Of a stretch of DNA of 64,000 bases, positions 9,001-15,000 are shown one piece after another. Numbering within the stretch: position 1 is the stretch's first letter; each line of letters begins with the position of its first letter. The position numbers were made by a program. Source of the DNA: Lachnospiraceae bacterium. Its GTDB lineage: Bacteria; Bacillota; Clostridia; Lachnospirales; Lachnospiraceae. Location: the NCBI GenBank assembly GCA_017482205.1, contig JAFUNK010000004.1:169668-233667 (forward strand), given 5' to 3'.

Positions 9001-12000
9001 TTATCAGATGGATTTAAAACTTTTTGGTATTATTCCCTTTAAACAAGTCAGTGTAGATGTCATTGAAAATATGACGCTGACACCCGTGGGTATGCCTATC
9101 GGAATTTATCTGAAAACGGATGGGGTACTTATTATCGGCATTGGAGATTATATTTCGCTGAACGGCAGCAAGGTATCTCCGGCAGAATATCTTTTAAAGA
9201 GCGGAGATTATATTCTGGCAGTGGACGGAGAACCGGTATCGGATAAGAATACATTTATAAAAATGGTGGAGGAATCGGGCGGAGAAGCATTGGTACTGAC
9301 TATCCGCCGGGGAGAAGAGGAATTTGATGTAAAGTTAAAGCCCGTACAAAACCAGAACGGAGAGTATAAATTGGGAATCTGGGTCAGGGACAATGCACAG
9401 GGAGTGGGAACCATGACCTTTGTGGACGAACAGGGCAATTTCGGTGCATTGGGACATGGCATCAATGATGTGGATACCAGTCTGATATTACAGTTGGACA
9501 GCGGTACTTTATATAAGACGGACATTATTGCCATCAAAAAAGGAACCAGAGGGGATCCGGGAGAAATGACTGGCATGATTGATTATGCTGACAGCAATAT
9601 ACTGGGTGTGATTACAGACAATACGGAAAGAGGGATATTTGGCAGTTGTAATGAAAAAATGCTGGGTAAAATAGAAGCAGACCCATTACCCATAGGCCTA
9701 AAACAAGAGGTGGAGGCGGGACCGGCACAGATACTCTGTACCGTGGACGGCGAGCCGGCATATTATGACATTATGATAAAAGAAGTCCATCTGGACAACA
9801 ACAATGTGAACAAAGGTATTGTATTACAGGTAACAGACCCGGAGCTGATAGCCCTGACAGGCGGCATTGTGCAGGGGATGAGCGGAGCCCCCATTATCCA
9901 GAACGGTAAAATAGTAGGGGCAGTTACCCATGTGTTAATTAACGATGCTACCAGTGGATATGGAATATTTATTGAGGAGATGTTAGAGCATAATTAAGAA
10001 CAGAGCAGATATTACAAGGCTTTCTAAGCAGTTGTATTATCTGCTTTGTTTTATATATAAATTGATTAAAGTTGATGAAAGTGAAAAAAGAGATTAAGAA
10101 AAATAGGGACGAGTTATGTTGGGAGCAACAAAAATTTGCCCATTTTATGGAGGAGAAAAATGAATAAATTTATACCATTATTAAGTTTAAAAGATACAAC
10201 AGGAATTGTTGAATTATGTAATAAGTCAGGCGAGCCTGTAGTGGTAAACAGAAATGGAGAACTTAAATTAGTTATTATGACAAAGGATATTTTCAATGAA
10301 TATTTTCGGATTAGAAAACCGAACGGAGAATTAGATATTGAGAAGGAGTATTTTGGAATAAAAAATCAGAATTATGAATTAGAGGCAATCACGATTCAAA
10401 AACTAAAAAATCCGGCAGAGATTGTTAGAATATGTGAAAGCATTGATATGCCTTTTCCTATTATTAGAAATGGTTATGATGAATTGTATGTAATGAGTTA
10501 TAAGGAGTATTTGAGAAAAAAAACAATTATAAACATTAGTAAAAAAATTTTTTGAAATAAGACATAATGATAGAAGATGTTTATTTCAAAAACGTAGTGA
10601 CTTTTTGAAATAATGAAGGATTATACTTTTGGAAGGATATTTCCCAGTTTTTAAATTTTATTGATTTTGGGAAATAGATAATCTATAATTGAAAATGAGG
10701 TGATAAAATTATGAAACTGATAGATAGAACAGGATATTTACAAAAGTTAATAAATGTTATAGGAACGCCAGATATAAAAGTAATAACTGGTGTTAGACGT
10801 AGTGGAAAATCTAAATTATTGGAAGCCTTTAAGGAATATGTGCAAGAAACATATGTAGATGCAAATATCATTCATATCAATTTTAACTTAACAAAATATG
10901 AGGCATACAAGGATTATCATCTGTTAAATGATTATATTGAACAATCATATGTTAAGGGAAAAGAGAACTTTATCTTAATTGATGAAGTACAGATGTGTAC
11001 AAATTTTGAATTAACGATAAATAGTCTGCATGCAATGGAAAAATTCGATATTTATATAACCGGGTCTAATGCATTTTTATTAAGTTCTGACTTGGCAACC
11101 TTGTTTACCGGAAGAACCTTTGAAGTGAAAGTATATCCGTTTTCGTTTAATGAATTTCTACAATACTATAGCTTGAATGACAATTACACTGCTTTTGACA
11201 GATATCTGAAAGAAGGAGGTATGGCAGGTTCTTACCTTTATAAGGAGCAGGAAGCAAAATATGATTATATTGCAGATGTGTTTGATACATTGATAGTGCG
11301 TGATATCCGACAGAAATATAAAATTCGTAATCGAATTCTGATGGATCGTATTGTTGATTTTTTGATGGACAACATTTCGAATCTGACATCTGCAAGAAAT
11401 ATCGCAGATGCACTTACTAACAACAAAGATAAGATTAATCATAAGACTGTAGGTAGTTATCTGGAATATCTGTGTAATGCTTTTGCATTCTACAAGTTCC
11501 GCAGATATGACATACAGGGGAAGAGATATCTAGCCTCAAATGATAAGTTGTATTTGAGTGACCATACTTTCCGCTATGCAAAATTGGGAACCAAAAATTT
11601 GGATGTTGGTCGTGTTCTTGAAAATATTGTTGCCATTGAACTTCTCAGGCGAGGTTATGAAGTATATGTTGGAGTTCTTTATAAGAAGGAAATTGATTTT
11701 GTTGCTTTGAAACGGAGTGAGAAGATATATATTCAGGTATCCGATAACATCAGTGATGAAAAAACTTTTAAACGTGAAGTAGAACCTCTACTTCAGATTA
11801 AGGATGCATACCCGAAGATGGTAATTGCACGAACCAGAAGCGAAGAATATCAGTATGAGGGAATTCGGATTATTGATATTGCAGACTGGCTTGCAGAAGA
11901 ATGATTATTTCCCAAAATCCCAAAATGGAAAGTAGAAGAAACGGTGGTAGTGATGTTTACATTTGAAAAATGTACTTATGATGAATTACAGGTAATACGT

Positions 12001-15000
12001 TATGAGGCAGATTTGTTATTAAGCGGTTGGACGCTGCTTGAAAAGGAATATATAGATGAAACCGAAAAAATATATGATGAAGACGGAAAAATGGTGGCTC
12101 TGATCAATTATTACTTTTTGAATGAGAATAAAGAAAGAATGATGATTGCATTGTTCGAGGTGTTTAAACCATATCGAAACAGAGGTCTTGGCAAAAGGAT
12201 TATAGCTCAATTTTTCCAAGATTATCATGGAGAAGTACATTTAGAGCCATCTGGAGAAGAAAGTGAATCTTTTTGGAAACAATGTGGATTTGAAAGTGGA
12301 TGTTACTTAGATAGGAGAGTCAAATGAGACTTCTGTAATCCAAAATACTGTTGCATAACCATAGGGATATCAATATTAAAACTAACTTATTTTATTTCTT
12401 AACGCACTGATAATATGTTATAGGCTCTTGTAATAAAACGTATTGACAAACTAGGGAGACAGTGCTATTCTTTGTTCGGGAATATTACTAGTGTTAGTAA
12501 TAAAGATTACAGGAAAGGCGGTATATATGTTAGTTTCGAAGAATATACAGATAGAATTTGCCAACTCATCAATGAAAGCTATTAATGCTATTCATGATAT
12601 CCGGGAGGGGGTAAGAAGCGCATCGCTGAATCTTTATTCTCGTTATGATGTGCAAATTCAAACGCCCATGCTTTACGGGGAAGATAAGGTGGTTGTCGAA
12701 ATAAAAATTCCAGAAGAAATAGTTGAGACATTCTCAATTGGACCACATTTGAAAGGTGTAGCAACTTACCTTCTAAAAAATTGTAATGGACGATACGACC
12801 AGTATCTGGTCGGTAAAAGATTATTGATGTACACAGAGGTAGCCACTCCAGATGCTTCAGACAATAGATTTCCTATGGAAGATAGGCTAGAGGCAATTGC
12901 GAAGTTTGCAAAGCTGTTGGAGAGGTCAGATGAAGAGGCTATGGATGCTATCAGTCAGATTTTAGTTATCTTAAAGGAGGTCAATAATGATATTACAGGT
13001 ATTTAAGAACATAGGCGATAGATTGCTTGTCGCAGACGCATATACAAGTATGATAGCAGTTTATTCTGGACAATTATATCCGAAGAAAAAAGCGGCCGGG
13101 TCAATTGGTGGTGCGGTAAATGGTGGAACCATTATTTTAAGAAATGGTTATTATGAAAGGGTGAAATAGCATGGATGAAATGACATTACAGAATTGGTCG
13201 CAGAGTGCATCAGAAGCCGTAAAAAATTCTTCACTTTCTTTTTCGCTAGAAGGGTGGCCAGCAGCAGTTACATTAATTTCTATTTCAACCGCAGTTGTAT
13301 TAATTTATGCAATAAAATCATTTGCGTAACAAAATTTCTTTATAACTGGAGCAAATCTAATGGTGAGAAGATTTTTTATACGCTAATTTTCTGCCTGTGT
13401 TATGCGGATATTGTAAGTTCTCTGTATACAGTGGCGTAGTCCACCGGCATATGCAAGTTTCGGTATTGAAATCTGTGAATATAGACATTACTAAAATTTG
13501 TGTTTTACACAGAATTTAGTAATGGTTTTGCCATTAATATCGGAAAATAGCAAAATATGCAGAAAAATGTTGCTCCCTACTTGACATGAAGGTGAGCGGA
13601 GCCCCCATTATCCAGAACGGTAAAATAGTAGGTGCAGTTACCCATGTGTTAATCAACGATGCTACCAGTGGATATGGAATATTTATTGAGGAGATGTTGG
13701 GAGAATAAATTTGGGTTTCAAGTAGTATTATTGCGAAATACACCTGTTTGTGATAGTATTAATATTAAAATATGGAGTTATATTATTCAAGTGGAGTGTT
13801 TTGCATGAAGAAAGCAGATAAGAAAAATTTATTTTTATCATATATTAAAGGTGCCAAGGCAGTTTTTTTTACCGCGGTTACGTTGGTTTTTGCATTCTGG
13901 ATAATAGGGAGCTTTATTAGCCCGGATGAGCGGGAGGATATAAAAACCGATTGTCGAGAATTTGAAGCAGAATGGCAGCAGGTAGTGGAAAATGGTGAGA
14001 AAATTCCTGTAGAGGTGCCGGGAAAATTACCGGCAGAGTACGGGGAGGTAATTACGCTGACCACGATTTTGCCTGAGGATGTATATACCGGAGAATGTTT
14101 ATGCTTTCGTCCGGTTTGGCAGGATGTAACAATTTATATTGATGGACAATTGCGATTGGATTACAGTACGGAAGAGTCCCGTCCTTTTGGTATTAACAGT
14201 ACCATGAGATATTTGTTTCTGGAACTCAGAGAAGAGGATGCGGGCAAGGAAATGACTTACCGGTTTTCCAGTAATTCCAAATATGCAGGAGATATGGGGA
14301 CTTCGTATATAGGTGACCGTTCCAGTATATGGTTTTATATGTTGGGTAAATCCGGAATACAAACTGCAGTATCCATCATATTATTGTTGTTATCCCTGTT
14401 TTGTATTGCAGTATGTGCAATCTTAAAAGGATTATACAAGAAGGATCTTTCTTTAAAATATCTGGCATGGACTATATTTTTCTGTGCATTGTGGATGGTA
14501 TCGGAAAACGATTTCCGGCAGATGGTATTTAAAAATATTTCCATGTTATCCACGATTACGTATTGGAGCCTGATGTTGATACCGTTTCCATTGATTTTGT
14601 ATATCGATGATGTGCAGGGAGGCCGGTATCGGAAATTATACTTTGTATCAATGGCCTATTCCACAATTATGTTAATTGTCGGTACAGTGTTACAAGTATG
14701 CGAAATATTACAATTTGTACAGCAGGTGCCCCTTATTCACGTGGGAATACTGATTCCGTTGGTTTGCATGATTGCCACCATTACCAAAGATCTTATTACT
14801 AAAAACATATCCCAATACTTATTTGTAGGAATTGGTATTTATGGTCTTCTTTTTACAGCGATACTGGAAATGGTGTTGTATTATCACAGTTCACCGCTTT
14901 CGCTGGGTACGGTTTTGGCGGTGGGGCTGTTGTTCCTGTTTTTGATGGCTGTGATTAAGACCGGTCAGGATTTGTTTAAATCCGAGCAGAACAAGAGAGA

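Follow-up and report, generated by a model that had tools for sequence, protein, structure and literature searches.

A recombinase-less cassette at the catalytic-serine codons of spoIVB in a Lachnospiraceae genome, a probable derivative of serine-recombinase elements

An islet at about 9980-13592 of the window (the 64,000-nucleotide stretch of Lachnospiraceae DNA analysed here) is, with a probability of roughly three in four, a derivative without a large serine recombinase (LSR) of a family of integrative elements that are moved by LSRs and dock in spoIVB, where the site is the TG in the Met codon that precedes the codon for the catalytic Ser. We read it as a recombinase-less derivative because the cassette holds no LSR gene or remnant, the genome, which is 74% complete, holds no cognate enzyme, and the left module of the cassette is imported.

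The islet, with a G+C content of 25-36% against about 42-46% in the flanks, is bracketed by direct repeats at 9879-9984 and 13593-13698, which start 3714 nt apart and are the only two copies (A and B) in the genome. As a sequence-only reading of this DNA had claimed, they are identical at 104 of 106 positions, and both mismatches are synonymous and at third codon positions (9919/13633, GGG/GGT; 9940/13654, ATT/ATC). Identity begins, again as described there, within the Met-Ser codons of QGMSGAP (residues 414 and 415, numbering from the TTG at 8639), with the second Met base as its first position, and stops 13 nt short of the stop codon; the endings differ accordingly, EEMLEHN-stop in copy A and EEMLGE-stop in copy B. 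CCCTACTTGACATGAAGG directly precedes copy B. The idea that a replacement 3' end keeps spoIVB intact also held: the gene is uninterrupted over 452 codons and encodes a complete S55 domain. Its body and tail are those of the host and its ending (EHN-stop) is of cassette type, which makes it a chimera. The features of the region are as follows.

8639-9997, + strand: spoIVB, intact, 452 codons from TTG, with a PDZ domain and Peptidase_S55 (E = 1.2e-83)
9878-9883, + strand: Met414-Ser415 codons (ATG AGC) of GMSG; start of the repeat
9879-9984, + strand: repeat copy A, the working spoIVB tail (putative attL side), at host-level divergence from other species
9980-10131, + strand: left end of the horizontally shared cassette DNA, with the last codons (L)EHN, stop, terminator hairpin, AT-rich spacer and inverted right-end core; 149/152 identical to G635, of a different genus
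10160-10555, + strand: tandem Phd/YefM-like antitoxin-type ORF (PhdYeFM 28 bits, below the Pfam cut-off); 394/424 identical to G635
10556-10700, + strand: degenerate copy of a palindrome-rich promoter/operator block
10711-11904, + strand: AAA_14-DUF4143 ATPase (cargo, Pfam)
11944-12327, + strand: GNAT acetyltransferase (cargo, Pfam)
12491-13439, + strand: two ORFs without Pfam matches (12491-13006 and 13194-13439)
13486-13592, + strand: conserved cassette right end, with the P half-site core at 13567-13587 (ATGTTGCTCCCTACTTGACAT), the spacer GAAG, then GTG
13593-13708, + strand: repeat copy B with its own ending LGE-stop, a displaced, non-functional older spoIVB 3' end (putative attR side)

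The left end, which is also 87% identical to G070 and G131, contains a strong terminator hairpin (~9997-10052; -27.9 kcal/mol, z = -7.3). The Phd/YefM-like ORF, for which a mechanical ORF call begins at TTG 10136, has a long form common to the window and G635 and a shorter one in G070, and the palindrome-rich block that is degenerate here sits before a Fic/Doc gene in G070, G131, G014 and G080. The inverted copy of the right-end core, at 10108-10131, was considered as a true second attP half-site; its outer 9 of 9 nt match in inverted orientation, but it is not a canonical half-site because it lies ~235 nt from the crossover. As had been noted from the sequence, no recombinase is found among the Pfam-annotated ORFs of the islet, whose cargo is of addiction and defence type, and a tblastn search of 9998-13800 with five LSR proteins revealed no LSR gene or remnant (best E = 0.12). 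Misassembly of the islet is very unlikely, because unique non-spoIVB sequence lies to the left of copy B and many independent assemblies have the same architecture.

The sequence-only reading had proposed integration at the Met-Ser codons of GMSG, and comparison with relatives bears out a site-specific insertion there. Displaced tails begin at residue 412-414 in all of at least 14 congeners, and every displaced spoIVB tail is abutted by a motif of ~21 nt, TGTTGyyCCyTwCTTGACA, followed by a 4-nt spacer and (G/A)TG-AGC. We collected 36 distinct motif-tail junctions, drawn from 16 of 269 congeneric species, two other genera and 20/20 metagenome or viral hits, all with the shared form TGTTGyyCCyTwCTTGACA-N5-TG. 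A pattern scan returned 20 junctions in 16 of the 269 genomes of the genus and none with the reversed control, and each of the 20 viral or metagenome matches is a true motif-plus-tail junction. The TTGACA within the motif is unconvincing as a sigma-70 promoter, with 21 sites against 19.5 expected, which is the level of shuffled sequence. Empty-site alleles, for which the relatives were also searched, are the majority state. The predicted stacking of cassettes is seen in G017, G004, G121, G221, G178, G635 and L102, as stacks of two. Within arrays the tails are 97-99% identical; in G131 and G635 the tail pairs are mosaic. Toxin-antitoxin, defence and CRISPR-Cas genes make up the cassette cargo of relatives, and a recombinase is absent from ~60 annotated cargo ORFs in 17 genomes. 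One protein taken for an integrase by its size (Fam 1, 379 aa, beside spoIVB in five species) is a Fic/Doc protein.

The CCTACTTGAC...GTGAGCGG junction, for which conservation and a neighbouring recombinase had been raised as checks, proved to be conserved and to lie, in intact relatives, beside a trio of LSR genes. In G684 the motif is immediately preceded by three LSR genes in tandem, and the LSR1 protein combines Resolvase, Recombinase and Zn-ribbon domains. Orthologues that are 50-99% identical are arranged in the same way in L089, L090, L092, L104, L106, L116, L117, L130, G458, G530 and G534. Over ~28 nt, the P arm beside the G530 LSR gene is the same as the end of the G070 cassette, which lacks an LSR; the arm also has its 19-nt core in common with the window, whose right end matches the LSR-side arm of G530 at 27 of the last 35 nt. 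L116 and L117 agree on the element side up to ...CACTCG-TG, and their identity ends precisely at the TG, beyond which the host tails differ; in this comparison the distal tail is host DNA. The partly annotated parent elements encode a RecD2-like helicase, YqaJ and DUF3854, and no conjugation genes were found in the annotated parts of intact relatives. In G458, the LSR trio and a tail share one contig and a spoIVB with a very different tail lies on another; since linkage of the two contigs is unproven, we do not take this as evidence for a foreign proximal tail.

The marks of an LSR element are thus distributed between the window and its relatives: an LSR gene within the element is lacking in the window and present in the intact relatives, a conserved half-site of ~20-25 bp abuts a fixed crossover dinucleotide, and the same element sits on different host sequences at one nucleotide (L116 versus L117). 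The docking site, the half-site, its association with the LSR trio in intact relatives, the position of crossover and stacking in relatives are, at the level of sequence, well established; intact elements are predicted to carry a spoIVB tail as well. By this account an LSR would have made the particular insertion in the window, probably with the TG at 9879-9880 in the Met codon as crossover. The right border (13567-13594) would be attR, an intact element half-site joined at TG to the displaced older end, copy B, by now reduced to a fragment of a pseudogene. On the left, the border would be the matching attL, and SpoIVB is predicted to stay functional because the gene continues through working copy A into the last codons and terminator supplied by the cassette. 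Distal spoIVB tails show pseudogene decay. The sequence 3' of copy B is unlike the 3' UTR type that follows native tails in relatives, and copy B may therefore have come with an even earlier cassette instead of being the original end of the gene.

Could the repeats have arisen with no site-specific enzyme, by a one-off local duplication or by RecA-mediated (Campbell-type) insertion through spoIVB-tail homology? Host-like tails, identity that ends where homology ends, and the mosaic tail pairs mentioned above are what such a process would leave. However, the junction is fixed to the nucleotide and carries a conserved non-host motif at all 36 junctions, in hosts too diverged for homologous recombination, and in intact forms an LSR gene adjoins it. 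RecA, which had been suggested as an inserting agent, does not fit such a junction across hosts whose SpoIVB proteins are 44-57% identical. Duplication or RecA is therefore contradicted as the primary mechanism, and we regard it as very improbable, although it may have homogenised tails later. Origin of the islet from a tyrosine-integrase island or an integron-like array, of which it would be a remnant, is still more improbable. Replacement 3' ends are classic for tyrosine-integrase elements and stacking recalls integrons, but the enzyme at the junction is a serine recombinase, no tyrosine recombinase is present in the provirus record or in any cassette, the nearest in the window being an Xer-like gene 30 kb away, and attC-like hairpins are absent. 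The repeat unit, moreover, is a gene tail plus a linear motif, with no tyrosine recombinase near the site, which sets the islet apart from integrons.

The tail and the rest of the cassette derived from an LSR element differ in their relations to other hosts. Positions 9980-10555 are 93-98% identical to G635, of another genus, whereas the adjoining tail is only 67% identical. Hosts with SpoIVB proteins only 44-57% identical share Fic cargo at 90-97% identity. The left module of the cassette has evidently spread horizontally, and recently. The earlier suggestion that the tail came from a close relative is, thus, too simple: the tail is indeed host-like, but the DNA from 9980 on is 93-98% identical to the cassette of another genus, and the two therefore have different histories. 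If an LSR makes the crossover at the TG, the proximal tail should move together with the element; the proximal tail in the window is host-like, however, and an extra step such as gene conversion or homologous exchange is needed. The near-identity of the two tails probably reflects homogenisation by gene conversion or arrival from a conspecific strain.

A recombinase acting in trans had also been proposed; the cassette may move in this way, but this is an inference, and no cognate LSR was found in the 74%-complete MAG of the window or in 10 cassette-bearing congeners. The MAG's own LSRs, on contigs C26 and C18, are 28-33% identical to LSR1 and have another target. Among the 10 cassette-bearing genomes, five are without an LSR1-like gene at E <= 1e-20 and the rest have only paralogues that are 29-40% identical. 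As an LSR-less derivative, the cassette would today move only if a cognate LSR element were present, and would otherwise be a fixed remnant.

Alternatively, the islet may be an active non-autonomous element, comparable to a pseudo-SCC or a CIME, that leaves the chromosome as a circle of 3714 bp and integrates again, singly or in a stack, whenever a helper LSR element is in the cell; the cassette-borne tail would make attL attB-like and attR attP-like, and the reaction could run both ways. Several observations agree with it: cassettes that lack an LSR preserve the P arm exactly; such cassettes have common ends with differing cargo and are found, at 90-98% identity, in several species and genera; arrays have nearly identical tails; and many MAG contigs break at tails, a hint of population heterogeneity. 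Against it, no cognate LSR was found in any of the 10 cassette-bearing genomes, and the same pattern could result if intact elements were transferred and then lost their LSR genes. Searches of viral contigs with LSR1, of sequenced phages with LSR1 protein and junction DNA, of the records MT836038, MT835504 and MT837803, and of metagenome collections returned integrated copies only, with no excised attP form or circle junction. We consider an active element unlikely. An extended form of this idea, that the spoIVB tail site is an exchangeable platform at which triple-LSR helpers acting in trans excise, stack and swap LSR-less cassettes within and between species, and the displaced native tail serves as template for 'healing' the chimeric gene to host sequence, is offered tentatively, as a doubtful prospect. 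On such a platform insertion and excision would need no directionality factor, because the attL of a tail-carrying cassette mimics attB and its attR mimics attP.

A close parallel is SCC/SCCmec, as described in PMC13739063 and 10.1101/336396: LSRs act at rlmH (orfX), a conserved housekeeping gene in whose 3' end the cassettes dock, leaving it intact; in composite islands att repeats flank each cassette, cassettes with accessory cargo stack in tandem, and the one farthest from the gene is taken as the oldest; and ccr-less pseudo-SCC or 'no_ccr' elements have att pairs and no recombinase. The spoIVB family resembles SCC in its LSRs, its intact 3'-end target gene, its att-flanked tandem cassettes, some of them recombinase-less, and its accessory cargo. 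It differs in its hosts, which are gut Clostridia, in the three LSR genes of intact relatives instead of ccrAB or ccrC, and in its target; since spoIVB is entered ~38 codons from its end, the repeat is ~106-115 bp of coding sequence, compared with ~15-18 bp in SCC. SCC elements insert at the rlmH 3' end via CcrAB or CcrC, and the islet, targeting spoIVB, works like a pseudo-SCC without being a member of that family. CIMEs (cis-mobilisable elements), known together with the tandem accretion of ICEs and IMEs in Firmicutes, are remnants that keep att sites, have lost their recombination and transfer genes and lie side by side with other elements at one att site (PMC12084326). The islet likewise is flanked by att sites and has no recombination or transfer genes, but classic CIMEs use tyrosine integrases and derive from conjugative elements.

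Replacement of a 3' end is also known from e14 and phage 21, which integrate in the 3' coding part of E. coli icd, bring a replacement 3' end and leave the displaced fragment at the far end. In contrast to the islet family, they use a tyrosine integrase and are single autonomous elements that form no cassette stacks. Other sporulation genes are targets too, several of them of LSR elements: in PMC4191935, PMC5499854, PMC5025042 and PMC5595907, skin is described in sigK, SPbeta in spsM and gin in gerE. Such elements interrupt their target gene, which is restored only when they are excised in the mother cell, whereas spoIVB stays whole, a difference that the sequence-only reading had rightly drawn; with the gene uninterrupted throughout, excision during development is unnecessary.

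SpoIVB does its work in the forespore, the compartment that passes its genome on. The islet is a further example of an already known kind of island; we found no literature linking spoIVB with an integrase or att site. Serine-recombinase elements have repeatedly used the codon beside the catalytic serine of spoIVB as a docking site in gut Clostridia, probably Lachnospiraceae, and toxin-antitoxin, defence and even whole CRISPR-Cas loci pile up there as stacks. These islands parallel staphylococcal SCC and contrast with the gene-splitting elements in other sporulation genes. A natural set of LSR, attB and attP-arm combinations is now on hand, and the host-like tail next to recently imported cassette DNA provides a concrete case for post-integration repair of a chimeric essential gene.

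The window carries an intact spoIVB gene, preceded by recN, whose 3′ end (copy A) recurs downstream as copy B. The copies are direct repeats, identical at 104/106 positions and spaced by 3714 nt, and are the only two in the whole genome. The features discussed below are:

8639-9997, intact spoIVB (Peptidase_S55, E = 1e-83), its 3′ end being copy A
9879-9984, copy A, the proximal spoIVB tail
10108-10131, inverted copy of the right-end core
10556-10700, promoter/operator block
13567-13587, right-end core
13593-13698, copy B, the distal, displaced tail
13709-23700, accessory genes
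24053-24571, short Spo0A_C gene
43646-44530, Xer-like recombinase gene

Both mismatches (9919/13633 and 9940/13654) are at third codon positions and synonymous. Identity begins within the Met codon of GMSG, at its TG (with the TTG start as residue 1, this Met is residue 414 and the Ser of the catalytic motif 415), and ends 13 nt short of the stop codon, so that copy A ends in EHN* but copy B in GE*. The islet between the copies has a G+C content of 25–36% and encodes a tandem Phd/YefM-like protein, an AAA_14-DUF4143 ATPase, a GNAT acetyltransferase and two ORFs without a Pfam match; Pfam annotation found no recombinase gene among these ORFs, and the islet holds no LSR (large serine recombinase) remnant. 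The duplicated tail with synonymous mismatches and differing ends, and the AT-rich, recombinase-free cargo, described by a sequence-only reading, are thus real.

At least 14 congeneric species have extra spoIVB tail fragments 0.7–11 kb downstream of spoIVB. All start at residue 412–414, and directly 5′ of each is a conserved non-coding motif, with the consensus TGTTGyyCCyTwCTTGACA, ~5 variable bases, TG|AGC (36 distinct junctions). A strict motif pattern matched 16/269 genomes of the genus (20 junctions), while a reversed control pattern gave 0 matches in the same scan. Motif junctions occurred in 2 of the 400 other genera sampled, and the viral and metagenome contig matches were all genuine motif-plus-tail junctions (20/20). 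As most genomes contain only one tail, the empty sites expected from the proposed insertion are the rule. Stacking, also proposed earlier, was seen as two cassettes per site in genomes G017, G004, G121, G221, G178 and G635 and at locus L102. The core preceding copy B (GGGAGCAAC) has an inverted copy (GTTGCTCCC, outer 9/9 nt matching) 115 nt past the spoIVB stop, kept in genomes G070, G131 and G635; its distance to the crossover is too great for a canonical LSR half-site.

In intact relatives the motif adjoins LSR genes, which bears out the conserved junction suspected from the sequence. A 36.9-kb provirus record (G684) has a tandem trio of LSR genes immediately upstream of the motif; LSR1, the closest (Resolvase, Recombinase and Zn-ribbon domains), stops ~20 nt short of it. 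Orthologues with 50–99% identity are found at this position in contigs and genomes independent of that record (L089, L090, L092, L104, L106, L116, L117, MT836038, G458, G530, G534). L116 and L117 match on the element side as far as ...CACTCG|TG, beyond which they run into two unlike host tails; therefore, the crossover is fixed at that TG, and the distal tail is host DNA. The LSR-adjacent arm of G530 and the end of the LSR-less G070 cassette are identical over ~28 nt; the arm also shares a 19-nt core with window 13567-13587 (27 of its last 35 nt match), which ties the LSR trio to the window's motif type. G534 (96% complete) has the trio and a motif-plus-tail junction on contig C12 (L137/L138), but a search with the window protein found no full-length spoIVB there, perhaps because the gene is missing from the assembly, has diverged too far or was lost.

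Our main reading is that the islet is a recombinase-less derivative or remnant. Its right border would be an attR carrying an intact element-side half-site (P arm), followed by copy B as the displaced older spoIVB end; distal tails in relatives are decayed by nonsynonymous changes, frameshifts and deletions. The left border would be the matching attL, where the gene passes through copy A and finishes with cassette-type codons, and the cassette supplies a predicted strong terminator after spoIVB (−27.9 kcal/mol, z = −7.3). That the cassette is still mobile in trans, as first proposed, would fit the exactly preserved P arm, the same ends on cassettes with unlike cargo, the stacked cassettes and contigs breaking off at tails. 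However, the cognate LSR was not found in 10/10 cassette-bearing genomes (five lack any LSR1-like gene, and the rest have only 29–40% identical paralogues), nor was an excised form in any collection searched, making mobility in trans the less likely reading.

No LSR1-clade gene was found in the window's own metagenome-assembled genome, which is 74% complete. It has a tandem-LSR element (contig C26:856-3200, 33% identity to LSR1) whose half-site-like motif, TTAGTCCTTACTTGACA-GAAG, abuts a displaced tail of an XRE-family HTH gene; a second such junction, likewise outside the window, is at the end of contig C8 (C8:295712-295729). As this similar motif accompanies a different LSR, the motif class marks LSR half-sites more generally. 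The window has just one gene for a tyrosine recombinase, Xer-like (Phage_integrase E = 7e-51) and 30 kb away from the islet; it is probably the housekeeping XerC/XerD.

In having a replacement gene end the islet is reminiscent of e14 and phage 21 in icd, but it shares neither target nor enzymes with them. Skin/SPβ-type elements split their target gene; spoIVB is never split, which rules out that identity and upholds the distinction drawn earlier. A literature search found no paper that connects spoIVB to an integrase or att site. In its working the islet most resembles the ccr-less cassettes of SCC composite islands at rlmH (PMC13739063) and CIMEs in tandem arrays (PMC12084326), although it belongs to neither family, as target and enzymes differ.

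Among ~60 annotated cargo ORFs from 17 genomes there was no recombinase. They include toxin–antitoxin genes (Phd-Fic/Doc, HipBA, Phd-ParE, PIN), defence-type genes (AlbA_2/Schlafen-HATPase_c_4 proteins, AAA_14-DUF4143 ATPases, a complete type I CRISPR-Cas locus), two-component and ABC/FtsX systems, and giant proteins without assigned function. Complete type I CRISPR-Cas gene sets (Cas3 called by Pfam, the other genes from ORF sizes only) lie between spoIVB and the displaced tail at L029 (genome G172; 3824-15040) and L084 (G252; 2560-10631), and are therefore cargo of the spoIVB site. Several species have a palindrome-rich promoter/operator block, with CTTTTTGAAATAA / TTATTTCAAAAAG repeats and GGTATAAT, ahead of the Fic/Doc gene (loci L022, 4700-4890; L023; L018; L031). 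The window copy has degenerated, and the gene after it is AAA_14-DUF4143 in place of Fic/Doc, suggesting that cargo was replaced within this cassette.

Between copy B and the Spo0A_C gene lie ~10 kb of accessory genes (hybrid histidine kinase, OPT transporter, PqqD-like protein, hydrolase, LytTR, DUF3021, flavin reductase), with no more spoIVB tails or motifs found. The kinase and transporter are absent from the same place in genomes G131 and G008; variability here thus extends past the islet itself. The 'spo0A' that follows (183-aa open frame) encodes the DNA-binding domain only, with no space upstream for a receiver domain; it is one of three short Spo0A_C genes in this genome (the others, of 136 and 127 aa, at C21:185574-185882 and C3:29864-30172), and G008 has the same short form (177 aa).

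Fic cargo proteins are 90–97% identical between hosts whose SpoIVB proteins share 44–57% identity. Window 9980-10131 matches the cassette of G635, from another genus, at 149/152 positions and 10132-10555 at 394/424, whereas of the 99 tail nucleotides immediately before these stretches only 66 match. These comparisons argue for recent horizontal spread of cassette DNA. They also qualify the earlier view that the tail came from a close relative: the tail is host-like, but the adjoining 9980-10555 is nearly identical to DNA of another genus. Likewise, against G070 and G131 the tail is as diverged as the gene body (third positions 35–50% identical), and the non-coding post-stop stretch is 87% identical. 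Within most genomes proximal and distal tails are alike, both with species-specific residues. LSR crossover at TG would predict that the proximal tail moves with the element, yet the tail has diverged while the cassette DNA is near-identical; at least one replacement of the window tail must therefore have taken place after the window and G635 cassettes parted from their common ancestor. Replacement could have come by arrival from a conspecific strain, or by gene conversion from the displaced tail; a converted tract would end where the homology block ends, as observed, and G131 and G635 have mosaic tail pairs.
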